Position numbers and translations under genes: made by a program | In this document: positions 4,325 through 64,000 of the stretch, piece after piece | How positions within the stretch are numbered: position 1 is the stretch's first letter | Layout of the letters: every line of letters begins with the position of its first letter | Origin: Eledone cirrhosa | Lineage: Eukaryota | Length of the DNA stretch: 64,000 nt | NCBI GenBank assembly: GCA_964016885.1 | Contig: OZ024743.1 | Location: 328,042,001-328,106,000, forward strand | Direction of reading: 5' to 3' | The notes under the pieces: generated by a model | Database searches by the model: none | What the model saw: only the letters and a program-made list of their open reading frames with translations | What the model was told of the DNA's origin: nothing

Positions 4325-4600
4325 ATATGCTGCCTAGTGCTTAGGGTGTTAGATTTACAATCATAAGGTGAGCTTTATTCTCGAAGCAGATGGCACACTG
4401 TGTTCTTGAGCAAAACACTTCCTTTCACCTTGTTCTAGTCAACTCTGCTGAAAATGAGTAGCAGCAGTAGCTGAGAGTTAAACCTGTGAGGTACTGGTAT
4501 CACATCCAGGGGTAGTATTGTACTCTCGGTTGCTTAATGTCATTGAAAGTGGAATAAAAACCAGCCTGATGAGCCTCTAGGTTTCAAATAGATTTTAACC
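4325..4600 (+). mobile_element. tRNA-derived SINE, MetaSINE-like body with L2-like stem-loop tail
   Basis: tRNA-like head; ttcttgagcaaaacactt...aaaatgagta...acctgtga...atccaggggtagt body; cctgatgagcc...ggc tail. Copies at 21898-22155, 45348-45620, 52260-52508 (-), 37850-38005 (-) and 8320-8462 (-). The family name is from recollection. Confidence 0.65.
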
Positions 4601-6085
4601 TATATTATAATACATTCACATACCACCACACCTAGTGGTGGCAAATTGGCAGTGTTGTTAGAGCATTAGAATAAATATTTCAATATTTTTTATGACCATC
4701 TGTGCTCTGAGTTCAAATCCCACTGAGGACAATTTTGTCTTTCATCCTTTCGGGTTAATAAATAAAGTACCAGTCCAGGTAGCATTGGTAAAGTGTAAAA
4801 GAGAATGCTTTGTGGCATCTAATCTAGCTCTGTAAATTCTGAATTCAAATCACATCTTCTGCCAAGTGTGTCAACCAGCAAATAATAAAGGCAATGGAAA
4901 GACCAATGGAAACATTGTTTCTTTGGTCTAATCTGATAACCAGTTCCTTTCCCCTTTTTTAACCTAACATTTGTGATTCAATATTGGTGATATTATCTCA
5001 TAGACGCACATAAGCCTGTGTTTATGGAATTGTTTATTTATAAAGCCACAACAGAGATCTAAAAGAAAAATCATCATTTTTACATCTTTCATGATGGCAT
5101 GGGTTGAATGAGAATTTTTTGAGGTAGTTTTCCTATAACTAAATGCCATTTCTAATGCTAACCCTTACTTGGTTTTAAATAAGGTACTTGATCTTTATTC
5201 ATTGAAGTGGTGAGCTATGAGACATACTGTTTATGCAGGACATAAACAATTAGCACTGGCTACCCAAGTAGAACCAATGTGAAGAGAAGACATCATCATC
5301 ATCATAATTTTTACGTCTGTTTTTCCATGCTTGCAATAGGTTGGACGGGTCCTTCTCGGCACAGCATCTCTCCACTCACTGCGAGACAAACGTACACACA
5401 CATATATATATGATGCTGATGATGAATGCTTCTGCTTAATTTCCAATGTCTCTGACAAGGTATTCGTCAGTACAAGGCTATTGTAAGAGACACTTGCTCA
5501 CAATACCACACAGTATGAGTAAATCTGAAACCACATGGTTGTGAAACAAACCTTTTAACCTCAGTCATAGTTTAAAAAAGACAACAACAACTAGCCATGG
5601 ACACAATATTAAGAAATGTAGAAAATATTTGATAAAATAACTATTTTTCTCATATAAATTTAGATAATTATTTAAAATGAGTAGATAATTATTTAAAATG
5701 AAGACTGAGTAATGAAGATTGCATGGCAGCTTTAATTTACTGCTATAGCCACATCACCATTGTCTATCACAATTATATCTTCAACAAGGTTTATAATAGC
5801 CCTGGCAACACAATAAAAAACAAATACACAATCTTTTACAACTTAAAACATATGCTTCTACTGGCTCATTCATGTATAATGTTATTACAGCTCACAGGCT
5901 GTAGGTCTAGTGGACCTCCTATGAGATTGTATCTTTTGAGAGGTTTTGGAGATGTTTTAATGACAGGAGGCCTCAGTCCTATCATTGTTGTTACAGCTCA
6001 AACCTATGTAGGGTTAGCTGGCCTCCTACGGGTTTGGATCTCATAGGAGGTTTATTTGGTGTTTTAATGATAGGGAACCAAATCC

Positions 6086-8330
6086 TATCACTGGAATGGA
6101 CATGTGTCTGTTGCTAGGGTTAACCCCCCAGTTATTGTTGGTACTATCACAGGACTGGGTGTGGGTCTATTGCTAGGGTTAAAACCCAGTTATTGTTGGT
6201 ACTATCACAGGACTGGGTATGGGTCTATTGCTAGGGTTAACCCCCAGTTATTGTTGGTACTATCACAGGACTGGGTGTGGGTCTATTGCTAGGGTTAACA
6301 CCCAGTTATTGTTGGTACTATCACAGGACTGGGTGTGGGTCTATTGCTAGGGTTAACACCCAGTTATTGTTGGTACTATCACAGGACTGGGTGTGGGTCT
6401 ATTGCTAGGGTTAACACCCAGTTATTGTTGGTACTATCACAGGACTGGGTGTGGGTCTATTGCTAGGGTTAACACCCAGTTATTGTTGGTACTATCACAG
6501 GAGCGGGTGTGGGTCTATTGCTAGGGTTAACACCCAGTTATTGTTGGTACTATCACAGGACTGGGTGTGGGTCTATTGCTAGGGTTAACACCCAGTTATT
6601 GTTGGTACTATCACAGGACTGGGTGTGGGTCTATTGCTAGGGTTAACACCCAGTTATTGTTGGTACTATCACAGGACTGGGTGTGGGTCTATTGCTAGGG
6701 TTAACACCCAGTTATTGTTGGTACTATCACAGGAGCGGGTGTGGGTCTATTGCTAGGGTTAACACCCAGTTATTGTTGGTACTATCACAGGACTGGGTGT
6801 GGGTCTATTGCTAGGGTTAACACCCAGTTATTGTTGGTACTATCACAGGACTGGGTGTGGGTCTATTGTTAGGGTTAACACCCAGTTATTGTTGGTACTA
6901 TCACAGGACTGGGTGTGGGTCTATTGCTAGGGTTAACACCCAGTTATTGTTGGTACTATCACAGGACTGGGTGTGGGTCTATTGCTAGGGTTAACACCCA
7001 GTTATTGTTGGTACTATCACAGGACTGGGTGTGGGTCTATTGCTAGGGTTAACACCCAGTTATTGTTGGTACTATCACAGGACTGGGTGTGGGTCTATTG
7101 CTAGGGTTAACACCCAGTTATTGTTGGTACTATCACAGGACTGGGTGTGGGTCTATTGCTAGGGTTAACACCCAGTTATTGTTGGTACTATCACAGGACT
7201 GGGTGTGGGTCTATTGTTAGGGTTAACACCCAGTTATTGTTGGTACTATCACAGGACTGGGTGTGGGTCTATTGCTAGGGTTAACACCCAGTTATTGTTG
7301 GTACTATCACAGGACTGGGTGTGGGTCTATTGCTAGGGTTAACACCCAGTTATTGTTGGTACTATCACAGGACTGGGTGTGGGTCTATTGCTAGGGTTAA
7401 CACCCAGTTATTGTTGGTACTATCACAGGACTGGGTGTGGGTCTATTGCTAGGGTTAACACCCAGTTATTGTTGGTACTATCACAGGAGCGGGTGTGGGT
7501 CTATTGCTAGGGTTAACACCCAGTTATTGTTGGTACTATCACAGGACTGGGTGTGGGTCTATTGCTAGGGTTAACACCCAGTTATTGTTGGTACTATCAC
7601 AGGACTGGGTGTGGGTCTATTGCTAGGGTTAACACCCAGTTATTGTTGGTACTATCACAGGAGCGGGTGTGGGTCTATTGCTAGGGTTAACACCCAGTTA
7701 TTGTTGGTACTATCACAGGACTGGGTGTGGGTCTATTGCTAGGGTTAACACCCAGTTATTGTTGGTACTATCACAGGACTGGGTGTGGGTCTATTGCTAG
7801 GGTTAACACCCAGTTATTGTTGGTACTATCACAGGACTGGGTGTGGGTCTATTGCTAGGGTTAACACCCAGTTATTGTTGGTACTATCACAGGAGCGGGT
7901 GTGGGTCTATTGCTAGGGTTAACACCCAGTTATTGTTGGTACTATCACAGGACTGGGTGTGGGTCTATTGCTAGGGTTAACACCCAGTTATTGTTGGTAC
8001 TATCACAGGACTGGGTGTGGGTCTATTGTTAGGGTTAACACCCAGTTATTGTTGGTACTATCACAGGACTGGGTGTGGGTCTATTGCTAGGGTTAACACC
8101 CAGTTATTGTTGGTACTATCACAGGACTGGGTGTGGGTCTATTGCTAGGGTTAACACCCAGTTATTGTTGGTACTATCACAGGACTGGGCGTGGGTCTAT
8201 TGCTAGGGTTAACACCCAGTTATTGTTGGTACTATAATTGGACTGGGTGTGGGTCTATTGCTAGGGTTAACCCCCAGTTATTGCTGGTACTCTAATTGGA
8301 CTGGGTGTGGGTCTATTGCTAGGGTTCACC
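6086..8330. repeat. 58-bp satellite array, about 38 copies
   Basis: Unit actgggtgtgggtctattgctagggttaacacccagttattgttggtactatcacagg; the 2-nt shift per 60-nt line confirms a period of 58. Confidence 0.97.
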
Positions 8331-11300: not shown

Positions 11301-12635
11301 AAATTAGAATGACTAATATTGGTAGAGCAGATGGAATTCAGGTCACCCATCTATCGATTAGTCGGCCTCAATCGGAAATGCATATAACTACTCATAGCAA
11401 GGGGAACATTATTTTAAAATAACAAGGAATGAAAATTCGATTACGATTTTGGCTAAAATGATTTTTACTTGGAAACAGGAAATGAGAATCAGCGGTAGAG
11501 ATACATTTTCTACGTAGCATCAGGTATCTGATAGCTATATCAAATATAATAGAAAAACTACTACATTTTTGATTATATATATACATTCATAATTTAGTTC
11601 CACGTCTCTTATAACGACCAACACACCATATATAACCTTCATCTAATAACAAAGGTTAGAATGACACGACTATCGGAAAAGTGAAATTTACTCAATATTT
11701 TTTTTTTTTTTTTCACCTTGTATTTTTACACAGGGGTAAGTAAAGTTTATAAAAAATAAAAATGTTGTGTCCCCATAAACCGGGGACAGATTATGAAGGT
11801 TTAGTTATTACAGCCTGGGACGTTTTAAAAACATTATTTATAATACAATATGGATTTCACATCCTAACAGGTTGGGGTATGGTTAAAAAGGCTGGCTGAA
11901 AATTTTGAAAGGTAAAAAAAAAATAAAAGACACTTTTATCCACATTCGAAACAACAAAACCACACAAAAATTTAAAATCGAACGAAGAAAATCAAAACAC
12001 CATTTTTATTATGTTTAATTGCTCAAAGGTCCCGATTAGTATCATCATTAAGAGATGACAGTTCAGGGCTGTCCTCCTCAGAAGGGAACCCACAACACAC
12101 ATCGATAAAGAAAATCGATTTAAAAAATGTGTTAAAGTTGGTGAGTTGGTAGGTGTTAGAGAACAATCCACCTTAAACACCGTTAAATAGCAGCAAATCG
12201 AGGACATTGTCCAGGTTTACCTATGAAGCAAAGTATAACGGACAAAATAGACAGGAATTAACGAGGTGTTGCTTATTACTGAAACACTAGTAATTAATTA
12301 GGTGATCTCAACAGAGCAAATCAATTAAATTCGGAGAGAGAGATTAGCATAATATAGCTGTAATAGAGAGTCGAGTTCCTCTGAGTACAAGTACGAAATA
12401 GAAATAACCATTATATATATATAGGTGTGTGTGTGTATATATATATATAGAGAGAGAGAGAGATATAGATAGGTAAATATACACGGGTGTGTATGATTGT
12501 GTATAGAAGATTATATTAATAAGAGGAATTCCAACTTTGTCTGATTTACTCGTTTTATTTACAATCCTTTAAAATATATATAATATGGTATTATAATGAA
12601 ATAGTATGATAGAATATTAAATTCTAAGTGTTAAT

Positions 12636-12674
12636 TGAACAAGTACTTTCATGCTTTCGCAATCTTCAGGTTCA
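12636..12674 (-). ncRNA. Minimal type-I hammerhead ribozyme motif
   Basis: Minus strand reads UGAAC-CUGAAGA-U UGC GAAA GCA U-GAAA-GUAC-U-U-GUUCA: 5-bp stem I, intact core, GNRA-capped stem II and palindromic stem III (AGUACU). Confidence 0.75.
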
Positions 12675-13177
12675 TGATATGTGGTGACAGTCGAGTTTGC
12701 AATTTTCAATATATATATAGGAACACAGACACACAATAAAACTTTGCAAATAATGTAGGTAAACGTGAAAAACATTTGTTTATCCGAGATGAGTCCTAAT
12801 CATGTAAACCTATGATCAAAGGTGCTCCAGTCACAGCCACCACATTTTTCCGCATGCAAGGTGCACCTGCGACTACATTATCCAATCTCGGTACTAGTTC
12901 TAGTAGGGCAAGTAGACGACCAAGGAACAGCGATCTTTACACTTAAAAGCCAATGTTAGTTTAGAAGTAGAGGAGAAAGCAACCGTTTTTGCATGGTTAG
13001 CTAAACGTTAAATACAACACAACAGTCTAAATATGGCTTTTTACATAGAGATGGCTTTATTATAAAGACTTCGCTTCGAGAATATGTTACCTGAAAATTT
13101 TAATTCATATGAAATTTATATTCCAATGCGAACAGTTAAATATATTTGGAAATGTATAGTTTTCATTAGACAAAGTA

Positions 13178-13394: not shown

Positions 13395-13452
13395 ATGCTG
13401 AATAGTGAGTCTTGTTACTCTGGAGTCTCGCCTGTTTATCACAGGGTCATCA
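13395..13452 (-). mobile_element. Penelope-like terminal-repeat fragment with degenerate hammerhead
   Basis: Minus strand reads CUGAUGA-C CCUGU GAUAA ACAGG C-GAGA-CUC CA GAG-UA. Relatives lie at ~15390-15505, 16105-16260 and 25650-25733 (+), all next to (TA)n or (CA)n. Confidence 0.6.
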
Positions 13453-13800
13453 GGTATGTATATATATGTGTATATATATATAAATGAAAAGTATAGAAAT
13501 TGTTGTAGCGAGAAGCTAACTGTATTCCATAACATATATGTGACTATAGCGTCAAAATGGGAAAATAGTTAACATAAGATATGGGGAAAATAATTCAGAC
13601 TCAATTCAAAAGGAATCAGGATATAGATTTTCAACAGAATTTAGAGAAATCCAGGGAAAAATCAATAGAGCCTTAACTCATGATAAAACAAAGTCTAAAG
13701 TACTCAACCTTCAATTTGGGACAACTTCAAATGCTCTGTATAGTCTTGAAAAGACTATTTCACGAAAACTTTCAGTGGGGATGGTCACGGTTGGATCTCG

Positions 13801-15088: not shown

Positions 15089-15768
15089 CAGGAGAACATG
15101 ATATGAAGGCTAAAAAACACTTGTGGATAGTGCAGTTTTAAATCAACATATATATATATATATATACGTGTGTGTGTGTGTGTGTGTGTATATACGGCAT
15201 TTTCTGGTTGGCAATCAGAAGAGTTTTCTTCAGAAAATATATCTTATAATCGGCTCACGTGTATTAACTGTTCATTCAATATTTGTTTTACGTCCAGTCA
15301 TACATAAAACACACACGTCAGTGTGTGTATATATATACAAATACACACAGAAGTGTCTTTTATGTACGAGTCTACATACATATATATTCATTTTATTAAG
15401 GCTAAATAGCGAGTCTTCTTGCACTGGAGTTGTTTATCACAGGGTCATCAGAAAAGAACTTCGGTATTGAGTACTCTTTTATCTCAGCCGTCAACCACAT
15501 AGGGATATATATATATATATATATAATATATATACAACAACAACAAAAACAGAGTGTCTGCGGTGATGCGATCGGACACACAAGCCGAAACTGCTAGGGT
15601 CCGCGGTCGGGATTTTACATGTCTCTATATGTGTGAGTTTGAGTAAACAAATGAGAGAGTACTCAAATAGGGTAGAGTAAGTTTATTCGAAAATAAAATT
15701 AGAGCTTGTGCTCCATTCATCTTTGGTAAACCTGATAAAGGGTCACACGTGGCCAACGATGGAGATGA

Positions 15769-16022: not shown

Positions 16023-16362
16023 ATAATATATCGGCTCTCCCACTAAATCGAGCACTGTCTTTTCCTTCTTCACATTTCCGGATATTTCTTACTACACAAT
16101 ATATATATATTCATTTTATTAAGACTAAATAGTGAGTCTCGTTATTCTGGAGTTTTGCCTGTTTATCACAGGGTCATCGCTATTTAACCTTAATAAAATA
16201 AATATCAAACTCTACTTTGGTATCGAGTACTCTTTTCTCTCAGCCGTCAACCACATGCGGATATATATATATATATATTATGCATACATGCACCCGAAAG
16301 CGGGGGCGAGGTGCATCAATGATGCAAATATTCCGGGTAGATGGTAGACTATAAGAGCCATA

Positions 16363-22989: not shown

Positions 22990-24978
22990 CTAACTATTGG
23001 AGATGCAAAAAATTGCCCTTGCACACCTTAAATACTGCCCTTCACCATGTCTCAAGGACACACTCACCATATCGAACTTCTTGATAACATTAAGGTGTTC
23101 TGGAAGTATGTTCACTCAAAGCAGAGGCCTCACTCTCCAGTTGGTCCTCTTCGCAATCCCCACACAAGCCAGGTTACTGACGACCCCAAGGAATGCGCAG
23201 AGCTCATTGCTGAATGCTATGCAGGCATTTTCACTATTGAAGACCAGAGTGTACCATCTCCACCACCTATGACACCGGACTCTATTACAACCATCGAATT
23301 TACATCTGCAATGCTGCGACGTCACCTAAAATATAAACGCAACCATGCCTCTCCTGGTCTTGATGGTGTTACGTACCTGCTTCTTAAACGTGGTGGGTAC
23401 TTCCTTCTGCACCAGTTATCACGCTTCTTCCAATTCTGTCTGAACAACAGTGCTACTCCAGAACAGTGGAAAACTGCCAGTGTCCATTCCTCTGTTCAAA
23501 AAGGGTGACCGCACATCACCTGTGAACTATCGTCCAGTCAGTCTTACTAGTTGCATCGCCAAACTGATGGAATCCTGTGTCAGAAAAACACTTTGGAACT
23601 TCTGGAGCTCTCACAGTCTTATCCGGCCCTCGCAATTTGGATTTATCCCCAACTCCAGCTGCTGTGATCAACTTATAGAGTTTCTTGAGGACATCACCCG
23701 GATCACTGATGGCGGCTCATGGGTGGATGTTGTTTACTTTGACTTTGTGAAAGCCTTCAATTCTGTGCCACACAAAAGGCTTATGGCAAAACTCTCTGCA
23801 ATGGGTGTGAAGGATGATCTTTTTAACTGGTTGAAGTCCTTCATTCTCAGTCGAAGAGAGGTAGTCACGGTTCTGGGACAGCATTCCTCACCATATGAGA
23901 TGTCATCTGGTGTACCACAGGGATCTGTTCTTGGCCCCCTTTTGTTTGTGGCATATATTAATGACATAGATGCCAACTTAAAGAATTCCACGGTACTAAA
24001 GTACGCAGATGACCTCAAGCTGTACCTTAAGATAAAAAGGACAGATCCTGAACACTATAGATCTTGCTTGCAGTCTGATCTGGACACAATGCAACAATGG
24101 ATCTGACTGGCAACTCAAACTAGCTGTGGACAAGTGCACCACCATGCATTTTGGGAGTAAAAACCCAGCGTCCACATACTCCCTCGACAGCACTAATATC
24201 AAGAAGTCTGCTTGTGAATGTGACCTGGGCATTACGGTCAGCAGCGATTTGCGTTGGACGAAGCACGTCTCTAAAATTGTCAAGAGGGCCGAGGGTGTCT
24301 TAGCATCACTCAGCAAGACCTTTGTCAGCCGCTCTCCAGATATCTATTTAAGGCTGTACATGGCTATGGTGCGGCCACACTTAGAATTTGCATCACCAGT
24401 CTGGAACCCCTATCTTGCTCAGAACATTGACCGCCTGGAAACTGTTCAGAGACGTGCAACCAAGCGAATACCCTCCATCAAGCATCTATCATACTCTGAG
24501 CGCCTTGCTTCCCTGGGCATGGATACATTGAAGCTCCGACGCCTGGCAACTGACTTGGTAAACACCCACAAAATTGTTAACCATCTTGCCAACAACAACC
24601 CTGAGTACCTTTTTGATTTCCATGTGTCTAACACACGTTGACATGCCCACAAAGTCAGAAAACAGCACAGTTCCCATGACTTTCGGAAACATTTTTTCAT
24701 GCTCAGAGTTGCTGAAGCATGGAACAAACTACCTGTATCAGTTGTTAGCTGTCGAGACACTGCATCCTTTAAGGCCTCCATGCTTCCCGAGATCCGCCAA
24801 CACTACAGCTAATGTTCCCCCTCCATACACATACACACATGTATACCATGACTCATACACTATTCACTTCCCTGCCATTTATGTATTATTCTATGTACTA
24901 TACATACACCTTTGACGAGTTATAGCGCACCTGAGCACTTTACACAATAATTTCATTATTATTATTATTATTATTATT
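22990..24978 (+). mobile_element. 5'-truncated CR1-group LINE (RT pseudogene, 3' UTR, (ATT)n tail)
   Basis: ORFs 23047-23508, 23450-24106 and 24126-24641 carry SPGLDG, NYRPVSLTS, DFVKAFNSVPH, GVPQGSVLGPLLF, YADD and RPHLEFASPVWNP. Two frameshifts and a stop at 24639; tail (ATT)n at 24956-24978. Confidence 0.93.
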
Positions 24979-45130: not shown

Positions 45131-46178
45131 ACACATGAGACACACATATATAAACAATGAAGATATATATCATCGTGTAGGTGTCACAACAAAACTCACC
45201 CAGCACTCACTGTAAATGTGGTTGCCGTTAGGAAAAAAGCGGACGTAAAATGATGATGATGATGAAATTGACTTAAGGATCACCTTAACTGAGATATAGA
45301 AAATATGTCACATGAACAAATGTAGGACATATATACAGACAGAATGTTGAGGCCTGTTGCCTAGTAGTAAGGGTGTCGGACTTACGACCATAATGTCGTA
45401 GGTTTGAATCCTGGGCTGGGCTGTGTGTTGTGTTCTTGAGCAAAACACTTCATTTCACGTTACTCCAGTATACTCAGCTGAAAATGAGACCAGCAATAAC
45501 TGGGGGAGTTAAACCTGTGATGGACTGACATCCTATTCAGGGGTAGTTTTGTACTGAGATAAACACCAGCCTGATGAGCCTCCTGGCTTGAGACAAACTT
45601 TAGACTAGATTAGACTTAGACAGAATGGAATAAACTTCCAATGTAAAACAGACAGAGAGCCAGAATGGACTTCCATTGGATTTGATGACAAGTGTTCCAG
45701 TTGTTTGGTCAATGGAACAGTCTGTTTATGAAATTAACATGAATGCATTCCACAGTACCCATTACATAATTCTCAGGGAGATTCAGTGTGACAAGACCAG
45801 CCCTTTGAATTACAGACCCAGTTTATCTGATGGGTTTACAAAGAGTTTCTGTCTACCCAGTTTCATTCACAAGGCAAGAGTCGACCTGAGCCAAGATTTA
45901 ACTTGGGATCTGCATGTTTCTGTCACTGCCCAGTCTCCTCTATCTTTCTATTTCTTCTTTAATTTCTCATTCTATTTTCTGATGAAAAACTAGCATCTGA
46001 AACGTTGAGATTCTTTTCCTACAATATTAAGCATAAAACTAATATATTTCTTCATTGTACTGTGTCGTTTGCTTTATTATTTCCGTTTGCCTTATTGCAT
46101 ATATATAGGTATGTATACACACACACACACATCACATAGAATCAGCAACAAGCCTTAAACTGATAGTAATATACTCAC

Positions 46179-60161: not shown

Positions 60162-63100
60162 ACAGGTTGGACAGTGGGTTTAAAGCTGGAGTGACAGGCT
60201 GGACTGTGGGTTTAAAGCTGGAGTGACAGGCTGGACAGCAGTTCTAATGCCAGAGTGACAGGCTGAACTGTGGGTCTAATGCCAGAGTGACAGGCTGGAC
60301 TGTGGGTCTAATGCCAGAGTGACAGGCTGGACTGTGGGTCTCATGCCAGAGTGACAGGTTGGACTGTGGGTCTAATGCCAGAGTGACAGGCTGGACTGTG
60401 GGTCTAATGCCAGAGTGACAGGCTGGACTGTGGGTCTAATGCCAGAGTGACAGGTTGGACTGTGGGTCTAATGCCAGAGTGACAGGTTGGACTGTGGGTT
60501 TAATGCCAGAGTGACAGGTTGGACTGTGGGTTTAATGCCAGAGTGACAGGCTGGACTGTGGGTCTAATGCCAGAGTGACAGGCAGGATTGTGGGTTTAAT
60601 GCCAGAGTGACAGGCAGGATTGTGGGTTTAATGCCAGAGTGACAGGTTGGACTGTGGGTCTAATGCCAGAGTGACAGGTTGGACTGTGGGTTTAATGCCA
60701 GAGTGACAGGTTGGACTGTGGGTCTAATGCCAGAGTGACAGGCTGGACTGTGGGTCTAATGCCAGAGTGACAGGCTGGATTGTGGGTTTAATGCCAGAGT
60801 GACAGGTTGGACTGTGGGTTTAATGCCAGAGTGACAGGCTGGACTGTGGGTTTAATGCCAGAGTGACAGGCTGGACTGTGGGTTTAATGCCAGAGTGACA
60901 GGTTGGACTGTGGGTTTAATGCCAGAGTGACAGGTTGGACTGTGGGTTTAATGCCAGAGTGACAGGTTGGACTGTGGGTTTAATGCTAGAGTGACAGGTT
61001 GGACTGTGGGTTTAATGCCAGAGTGACAGGTTGGACTGTGGGTTTAATGCCAGAGTGACAGGCTGGACTGTGGGTTTAATGCCAGAGTGACAGGCTGGAC
61101 TGTGGGTCTAATGCCAGAGTGACAGGCTGGACTGTGGGTCTAATGCCAGAGTGACAGGCTGGACTGTGGGTCTAATGCCAGAGTGACAGGCTGGATTGTG
61201 GGTTTAATGCCAGAGTGACAGGCTGGACTGTGGGTCTAATGCCAGAGTGACAGGCTGGACTGTGGGTCTAATGCCAGAGTGACAGGCTGGACTGTGGGTC
61301 TAATGCCAGAGTGACAGGCTGGATTGTGGGTTTAATGCCAGAGTGACAGGCTGGACTGTGGGTCTAATGCCAGAGTGACAGGCTGGACTGTGGGTCTAAT
61401 GCCAGAGTGACAGGCTGGACTGTGGGTCTAATGCCAGAGTGACAGGCTGGACTGTGGGTCTAATGCCAGAGTGACAGGCAGGATTGTGGGTTTAATGCCA
61501 GAGTGACAGGCTGGATTGTGGGTTTAATGCCAGAGTGACAGGCTGGACTGTGGGTCTAATGCCAGAGTGACAGGCTGGACTGTGGGTCTAATGCCAGAGT
61601 GACAGGCTGGACTGTGGGTCTAATGCCAGAGTGACAGGCTGGACTGTGGGTCTAATGCCAGAGTGACAGGCTGGACTGTGGGTCTAATGCCAGAGTGACA
61701 GGCTGGACTGTGGGTCTAATGCCAGAGTGACAGGCTGGATTGTGGGTTTAATGCCAGAGTGACAGGCTGGACTGTGGGTTTAATGCCAGAGTGACAGGCT
61801 GGACTGTGGGTTTAATGCCAGAGTGACAGGTTGGACTGTGGGTTTAATGCCAGAGTGACAGGCTGGACTGTGGGTCTAATGCCAGAGTGACAGGCTGGAC
61901 TGTGGGTTTAATGCCAGAGTGACAGGTTGGACTGTGGGTTTAATGCCAGAGTGACAGGCTGGATTGTGGGTTTAATGCTAGAGTGACAGGTTGGACTGTG
62001 GGTTTAATGCCAGAGTGACAGGCTGGACTGTGGGTTTAATGCCAGAGTGACAGGTTGGACTGTGGGTTTAATGCCAGAGTGACAGGTTGGACTGTGGGTC
62101 TAATGCCAGAGTGACAGGCTGGATTGTGGGTTTAATGCCAGAGTGACAGGCTGGACTGTGGGTTTAATGCCAGAGTGACAGGCTGGACTGTGGGTTTAAT
62201 GCCAGAGTGACAGGTTGGACTGTGGGTTTAATGCCAGAGTGACAGGCTGGACTGTGGGTCTAATGCCAGAGTGACAGGCTGGACTGTGGGTTTAATGCCA
62301 GAGTGACAGGTTGGACTGTGGGTTTAATGCCAGAGTGACAGGCTGGATTGTGGGTTTAATGCTAGAGTGACAGGTTGGACTGTGGGTTTAATGCCAGAGT
62401 GACAGGCTGGACTGTGGGTTTAATGCCAGAGTGACAGGTTGGACTGTGGGTTTAATGCCAGAGTGACAGGTTGGACTGTGGGTCTAATGCCAGAGTGACA
62501 GGCTGGATTGTGGGTTTAATGCCAGAGTGACAGGCAGGATTGTGGGTTTAATGCCAGAGTGACAGGCTGGACTGTGGGTCTAATGCCAGAGTGACAGGTT
62601 GGACTGTGGATTTAATGCCAGAGTGACAGGTTGGACTGTGGGTCTAATGCTAGAGTGACAGGTTGGACTGTGGGTCTAATGCTAGAGTGACAGGCTGGAT
62701 TGTGGATTTAATGCCAGAGTGACAGGCAGGATTGTGGGTTTAATGCCAGAGTGACAGGCTGGACTGTGGGTTTAATGCCAGAGTGACAGGTTGGACTGTG
62801 GATTTAATGCCAGAGTGACAGGCTGGACTGTGGGTTTAATGCCAGAGTGACAGGCTGGACTGTGGATTTAATGCCAGAGTGACAGGCTGGACTGTGGGTT
62901 TAATGCCAGAGTGACAGGCTGGACTGTGGATTTAATGCCAGAGTGACAGGCTGGACTGTGGATTTAATGCCAGAGTGACAGGCTGGACTGTGGATTTAAT
63001 GCCAGAGTGACAGGCTGGACTGTGGATTTAATGCCAGAGTGACAGGTTGGACTGTGGGTCTAATGCTAGAGTGACAGGTTGGACTGTGGGTCTAATGCTA

Positions 63101-64000
63101 GAGTGACAGGCTGGATTGTGGATTTAATGCCAGAGTGACAGGCAGGATTGTGGGTTTAATGCCAGAGTGACAGGCTGGACTGTGGGTTTAATGCCAGAGT
63201 GACAGGTTGGACTGTGGATTTAATGCCAGAGTGACAGGCTGGACTGTGGGTTTAATGCCAGAGTGACAGGCTGGACTGTGGATTTAATGCCAGAGTGACA
63301 GGCTGGACTGTGGGTCTAATGCCAGAGTGACAGGCTGGATTGTGGGTTTAATGCCAGAGTGACAGGCAGGATTGTGGGTTTAATGCTAGAGTGACAGGTT
63401 GGACTGTGGGTTTAATGCTAGAGTGACAGGTTGGACTGTGGGTTTAATGCTAGAGTGACAGGCTGGACTGTGGGTCTAATGCTAGAGTGACAGGCTGGAC
63501 TGTGGGTTTAATGCTAGAGTGACAGGCTGGACTGTGGGTTTAATGCTAGAGTGACAGGCTGGACTGTGGGTTTAATGCTAGAGTGACAGGTTGGACTGTG
63601 GGTTTAATGCCAGAGTGACAGGCTGGACTGTGGGTTTAATGCTAGAGTGACAGGCTGGACTGTGGGTTTAATGCTAGAGTGACAGGTTGGATTGTGGGTT
63701 TAATGCCAGAGTGACAGGCTGGACTGTGGGTTTAATGCTAGAGTGACAGGCTGGACTGTGGGTTTAATGCTAGAGTGACAGGCTGGACTGTGGGTTTAAT
63801 GCTAGAGTGACAGGCTGGACTGTGGGTTTAATGCTAGAGTGACAGGCTGGACTGTGGGTTTAATGCTAGAGTGACAGGCTGGACTGTGGGTCTAATGCCA
63901 GAGTGACAGGCTGGACTGTGGGTCTAATGCCAGAGTGACAGGCTGGACTGTGGGTCTAATGCCAGAGTGACAGGCTGGATTGTGGGTTTAATGCCAGAGT
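60162..64000. repeat. 32-bp intronic satellite array, about 120 copies, running off the window
   Basis: Unit gccagagtgacaggctggactgtgggtctaat with recurrent variants (ggtt/ggct/ggca, gtct/gttt, gcca/gcta, tggga/tggg). Confidence 0.97.

Follow-up and report, generated by a model that had tools for sequence, protein, structure and literature searches.

A variant minimal hammerhead in the leader of a young EN+ Penelope-like element of Eledone cirrhosa, with genomic copy ends hinting at minor cleavage in vivo

Minimal hammerhead ribozymes (min-HHR) are already known from the pseudo-LTRs of metazoan Penelope elements, where the available text of Cervera and De la Pena (2014, PMC4209133) describes them as palindromic, dimer-dependent, weakly active and mostly solo, with a highly conserved G10.1-C11.1 pair and a bulged base ahead of it. 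The function of the hammerheads in EN+ Penelope elements is called unclear in the available sections of Craig et al. (2021, PMC8557442), a figure legend of which also mentions an optional frameshift in some element or elements. According to the accessible part of Frangieh et al. (2024, PMC11167929), the green anole Poseidon element did not require its hammerhead for insertion in vitro, and none of the RNA-seq reads terminated at the cut. A natural hammerhead with U10.1·U11.1 is likewise known, in which this was the best tolerated mispair (Perreault et al. 2011, PMC3088659), and the searches described in the accessible sections of that paper excluded mispairs adjoining the core. Related literature, available as excerpts, includes PMC6765202, PMC7229834 and the preprint 10.64898/2026.07.22.740005.

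The window analyzed here is the whole 64,000-nt stretch of Eledone cirrhosa DNA (contig OZ024743.1, positions 328,042,001 to 328,106,000). A predicted minimal type I hammerhead motif of 39 nt was located on its minus strand at 12636..12674, on the basis of the sequence, a descriptor with shuffles, genome matches and covariation. Read on the minus strand, it consists of a 5-bp stem I (5' strand 12674-12670, 3' strand 12640-12636), core CUGAAGA (12669-12663), U10.1 at 12662 and U11.1 at 12651 with three pairs between them that close a GAAA loop, core GAAA (12650-12647), the palindromic stem III AGUACU (12642..12647), which is the predicted dimerization site, and U17 at 12641. The type I core (C3 U4 G5 A6 N7 G8 A9, G12 A13 A14, A15.1-U16.1 and H17) was complete, and the cut is predicted after CUU, between 12641 and 12640. 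This reading agreed with the original prediction, made from the letters of the window, which had reported all core nucleotides, a 5-bp stem I, a GAAA stem II whose first pair is U.U, a self-complementary stem III, and a cut at the same place. The prediction had also called the motif intact, which holds for the motif itself and not for the copy that carries it: that copy is without a promoter and without a partner motif, and is therefore probably an ordinary inert fragment.

A relaxed type I descriptor matched the window once, at the 12636-12674 motif; 100 block-wise dinucleotide shuffles of the window averaged 0.03 matches. The folding energy of the motif was ordinary (z -0.15) and is uninformative alone. 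Helices I and II were present in the minimum-energy fold, with helix I open, and helix III appeared only as a dimer; a monomer hairpin of AGUACU is impossible (2-nt loop), and its self-duplex was calculated at -4.8 kcal/mol. When the full leader was folded, the pairing probability of stem I was 0.07-0.08. An Rfam scan of the motif returned no hammerhead at the gathering score or at E values up to 10, a result that reflects only the small size or the divergence of the motif relative to those models. We predict from these properties that the motif behaves as a dimer-type Penelope hammerhead. Dimer-cleaving variants of Penelope hammerheads were reportedly described by Lünse et al. in 2017.

Compared to the min-HHR in the available text of PMC4209133, the motif shared the type I form, the location in a pseudo-LTR, the 5-bp helix I, the palindromic helix III needing a dimer (AGUACU covers the palindromic positions 15.2-16.2 plus loop 3 that define the PLE min-HHR), and the occurrence in thousands of copies, mainly solo and derived from truncated elements. 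It differed in having 3 bp instead of 6-8 in helix II, no bulge between 9 and 10.1, and U·U instead of G10.1-C11.1; no register of the motif yielded a bulge between A9 and 10.1 plus a closing pair. Since G10.1-C11.1 is absent, we filed the motif as a variant of the PLE min-HHR. It is real and of a known kind, and it lacks two consensus features of the minimal form as published there.

We further investigated the 10.1-11.1 position by a descriptor survey of hammerhead families covering 717 kb of loci from the Eledone cirrhosa genome. The states found among other families were G-C plus bulge, G·U, A-U, U·U and C·C, and canonical hammerheads with a bulge between A9 and 10.1 occurred among them. 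Two further U·U families were present, in 310-nt tandem repeats (locus L082:100-900) and in repeats of 468-nt spacing (L168:1900-2900), with stems and palindromes that differ. When six rows from the three U·U families were compared, all 62 helix I-III cells paired, 8 of 11 pairs changed on both sides, the core was invariant, and 10.1-11.1 was unpaired in every row. Because a pairing descriptor selected the rows, which are also related to one another, the covariation is support and not proof. The original prediction had named the absence of covarying homologues, jointly with a failure to cleave, as evidence against itself; such homologues were found across the three U·U families. Run X4 suggested a candidate compensatory double change in stem III (L100 positions 1843 and 1844), which was rejected: 0 genome copies had both inner bases changed, and the reads of the run did not place the two changes in phase. 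The window also contained three damaged copies of an older second hammerhead family on the minus strand, at 13395-13453, 15400-15451 and 16125-16180, with a stem I of 6-7 bp, a near-palindromic stem III and 691 first-look candidates in the genome. As had been predicted, C stood on both sides of 10.1-11.1 in most of the copies displayed; in the window copy at 13395, the 5' strand of stem I is missing and GAGA replaces GAAA. In the literature searched, no family-fixed pyrimidine mismatch was described for Penelope hammerheads; Lünse 2017, or the figures and supplements of PMC4209133 or PMC8557442, may show one. In the available text of PMC3088659, U·U is a rare variant, whereas in the present genome thousands of copies have it as a fixed feature and it recurs in three families. 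Descriptors that require a 10.1-11.1 pair would miss the U·U class, and hammerhead counts in such genomes may therefore be too low.

The Eledone cirrhosa genome (about 3.0 Gb) was searched with a 35-nt pattern in which 10.1 and 11.1 were left free. There were 5,496 matches, compared with 0 for the reversed control, and U10.1·U11.1 was kept in 98 of the 100 matches listed. The original prediction was supported in proposing a minimal hammerhead and had missed the thousands of near-identical pseudo-LTR copies around it, an arrangement already published. The best-scoring copies were pieces of 200-250 bp flanked by TA microsatellites. Locus L031 contained a reverse transcriptase (RT), a CX4CXXC linker and a GIY-YIG domain, plus an inverted truncated arm on the 5' side, and the motif lay about 390 nt past the GIY-YIG stop codon. 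Loci L099-L105 contained head-to-tail units of 4,211 bp in which the motif flanked the coding region on both sides, about 390 nt after the GIY-YIG stop and about 200 nt ahead of the next ORF1 start. Among 12 distinct units, picked for inspection by their identity to L031, nine had an RT-EN frame open over 775 aa. Pfam searches of the parent gave RVT_1 (E 2.4e-6, just under its cut-off) and GIY-YIG (E 3.4e-6); a CX2-5CxxC linker lay at residues 650-658 of the RT-EN frame and a DKG motif at 158. The RT-EN protein had 521 homologues, and the named ones were mostly from bivalves or their symbiont bins.

The C-terminal GIY-YIG, linker and DKG motif, together with partial tandems, an inverted truncated 5' arm, a one-sided tail and TA targets, are shared with the Neptune/Nematis elements as described in the available text of PMC8557442. 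On the strength of these features, and not of an RT tree, we assign the parent to the Neptune/Nematis type of EN+ Penelope-like elements. Unlike that description, the parent has a 449-aa ORF1, without a Pfam match, that overlaps the 775-aa RT-EN frame in -1 phase (both frames at L100:2261-5841, minus strand, with the same layout in L099 and L102-L105). A U UUU UUA heptamer stood in canonical phase where the overlap begins, and no strong structure was predicted downstream of it; the overlap is likely a programmed frameshift. Most RT-EN homologues were likewise 700-800 aa long, and the split of ORF1 and RT-EN may be widespread.

Copy ends were mapped by counting 5' junctions with patterns in which an exact anchor had to be preceded by two non-element bases. 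A total of 3,359 matches had a 5' junction within 13 nt of one site, both arms of fold-back copies being counted, compared with 133, 107 and 86 in three equal windows further in. This main pile-up lay 31 nt downstream of a TATA box and 40 nt before the motif, and at most five upstream bases were retained in 97 of the 100 matches listed there. From the DNA ends and promoter motifs we infer that it marks the transcription start. A 3' splice site was considered as its cause, the site looking acceptor-like, and was rejected because the upstream letters vary and many copies retain AG. On a scale counted from the putative start, the motif occupies +40 to +78, the predicted cut follows +73 and ORF1 starts at +283. 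Among 30 loci, 20 had a long 3' end and 10 a short one about 50 nt earlier, both TA-rich. Most short copies begin ahead of the ribozyme and were therefore copied from uncut RNA.

The window copy fits this pattern. The 249-bp fragment at 12461..12709 (minus strand) is a solo pseudo-LTR, or 5' leader piece, derived from a Penelope-like element; over 249 nt it matches the leader in the 4,211-bp tandem unit of L100 at 99.2% identity. It runs from about +5 of the putative transcript to the outer ('tail') 3' end. A TA microsatellite at 12710..12719 forms the 5' junction and, with TA-type flanks in most of the copies displayed, would be the insertion target; the 3' junction lies in a compound CT/TA/CA microsatellite at 12412..12460 that blurs the exact end. 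Since copy ends cluster at the putative start and at the tail 3' ends, the window copy reads as a near-complete leader cDNA, and it appears to derive from the first 250 nt of an uncut transcript.

To dissect copy ends at the predicted cut, junctions directly at this position were compared with control positions. Of 32 matches with a non-T base directly before the cut, 30 were inspected and comprised 23 junctions (19 independent) and 7 point changes. At position -11, the 14 matches were 11 point changes and 3 internal indels, and there was no junction to foreign DNA. At position +9, where 30 of 40 matches were inspected, there were 10 point changes, 2 indels, 5 junctions and 13 fold-backs, the long arm of the fold-backs ending at the cut, within 4 nt of microhomology. 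A start profile was then counted by hand from the 15 flanking letters of each match. From the 107-match window, 66 of 100 listed were kept (15 duplicates, 15 indels, 2 ambiguous and 2 out-of-range matches were dropped); 44 of 100 listed were kept from the 133-match window, and 47 of 86 from the 86-match window. Among the matches listed, copy starts at -2, -1, +1 and +2 numbered 10, 11, 13 and 11. The 45 starts in -2..+2 compared with about 14 expected from 34 other positions, an excess of about threefold. Background starts were overdispersed (mean 3.8 per nt, variance 6.3, maximum 9.3), so Poisson values for the excess overstate its significance. Twelve of the 45 starts fell in two recurrent junction types, which may be microhomology hot spots or propagated copies, and 33 remained without them. 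In three insertions (L118/119, L120 and L129/130) both arms ended exactly at +1. When the first 100 of 166 matches of the C·C family were put through the same test, -2..+2 held about 12 starts, compared with about 3 per nt elsewhere, and there was thus no excess; fold-back products through stem I were common in that family. The excess in the U·U family hints at minor cleavage in vivo. Separately, at L109, L114, L117 and five further loci, the base following the cut was directly preceded by internal element sequence or by the first 48 post-cut nt, in the same orientation; these joins possibly reflect template jumping from a cut RNA end, or ligation of that end.

The reading we prefer, with a probability of roughly 0.7, is that the motif is the hammerhead of the leader of a young EN+ Penelope element, that the window holds a solo copy of uncut RNA in a TA microsatellite, and that cutting would be slow, dimer-assisted and limited to 1-2%. 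Reverse transcription would begin inside the leader at the two TA-rich sites about 50 nt apart, and would usually reach the RNA 5' end through the uncut ribozyme. The 249-bp window copy was likely reverse-transcribed from such uncut RNA and then inserted into the TA microsatellite. The ribozyme alone would fold poorly and cut slowly, and would dimerize via the AGUACU palindrome, its partner being a second motif in the same read-through transcript or one in trans; the element's protein perhaps assists cleavage. About 1-2% of templates would be cut after nucleotide +73, leaving the small excess of copies that start at the cut. Judged from genomic sequence, the motif likely cuts a small minority of element RNAs despite U·U, and we consider the chance that 1-2% of templates are cleaved in vivo slightly better than even. 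The further proposal that the pyrimidine mismatch in place of G10.1-C11.1 acts as a built-in brake, holding cutting to 1-2% of transcripts, and that the 5'-end peaks record this ratio directly, is tentative and falls somewhat short of even odds.

This scheme resembles that of the anole Poseidon in the available text of PMC11167929, in which two internal RT starts define the tail, uncut RNA is the main template, and the hammerhead is weak and assisted. The two elements differ in layout. In Poseidon the motif overlaps the start codon and RT starts in the ORF at a site unlike the target, whereas in the present element the leader contains the motif as well as both 3' ends, which are TA-rich like the target. 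They differ also in the reads, none of which ended at the cut there, whereas a small excess of genomic copies did so here. If the proposal of a built-in brake is true, these copies would document, at genome scale, in vivo cleavage by the hammerhead of an EN+ Penelope element. The interest rests on the recurring pyrimidine mismatch and on cut and uncut templates that can be counted. The family retains coding copies that are intact, its start can be mapped and its copy ends run to thousands, so that the question of in vivo cutting is addressable with ordinary assays.

The most serious rival holds that the U·U motif is uncut in vivo and a passenger in a young family, and that the pile-up at -2..+2 arose from microhomology or from RT pausing at stem I. 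The uncut motif is retained in at least about 98% of copies near the region, the two recurrent junctions have 3-4 nt of microhomology across the cut, and the C·C family is without an excess, all as this rival would have it; the conservation of the copies is uninformative on selection because they are so young. On the other hand, the blunt double-arm junctions exactly at +1 require no microhomology, and fold-back through stem I, considered as a source of the +1 ends, was rejected because its expected product was absent from the 30 +1 loci. The stems covary around an invariant core over three U·U families, partly by construction as the rows were descriptor-picked, and U·U is the mismatch best tolerated at 10.1-11.1 according to the available text of PMC3088659. 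We regard an uncut passenger as unlikely, while giving it more weight than any other alternative.

Less probable still is that the cut serves translation instead of templates, by removing the cap and two upstream AUGs and thereby altering ORF1 initiation. AUGs at +39 and +62, in the motif, open frames of 8 and 11 codons ahead of the cut at +73 and of ORF1 at +283, and type I hammerheads of viral 5' UTRs promote cap-independent initiation in the available text of PMC13725137. A third upstream AUG at +275 would survive the cut, however, and the anole motif, overlapping its start codon (PMC11167929, as excerpted), offers no parallel layout. The single motif in non-coding DNA, and the U·U hammerheads of the 310- and 468-nt repeat families, could suggest instead a host ribozyme that stands alone, one monomer of a tandem retrozyme, or a match by chance. 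These were refuted, and we leave them next to no probability: across its 249 nt the fragment shares 99.2% identity with the leader of a coding element with 5,496 copies, its similarity to the two repeat families is trivial (17-26 nt, E 0.03-0.09), and only the 0.03 matches found in shuffles are expected by chance. A metazoan non-LTR retrozyme was likewise rejected, the tandem unit being coding and 4,211 bp long, the window copy solo, and the locus without an array. Compared to these alternatives, a rarely cut leader hammerhead of a young Penelope-like element remained the preferred reading.

Other features were observed during the analysis. Run X4, compared with run X1 of the same organism label, showed more A>G and T>C differences over L100:1600-2300; the excess could conceivably be RNA editing of fold-back copies. 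Within the window, a broken reverse transcriptase of another retroelement was located at 23032-24641 on the plus strand (Pfam RVT_1, E 1.6e-31 at 23444-24106). Two related stretches with a CUGAUGA core, at 4551-4600 and 45556-45610 on the plus strand, resembled decayed hammerheads of a further family. A homogeneous 58-bp minisatellite of 39 copies occupied 6085-8326, and a homogeneous 32-bp minisatellite of at least 120 copies, with units that look similar to those of the 58-bp array, occupied 60162-64000.
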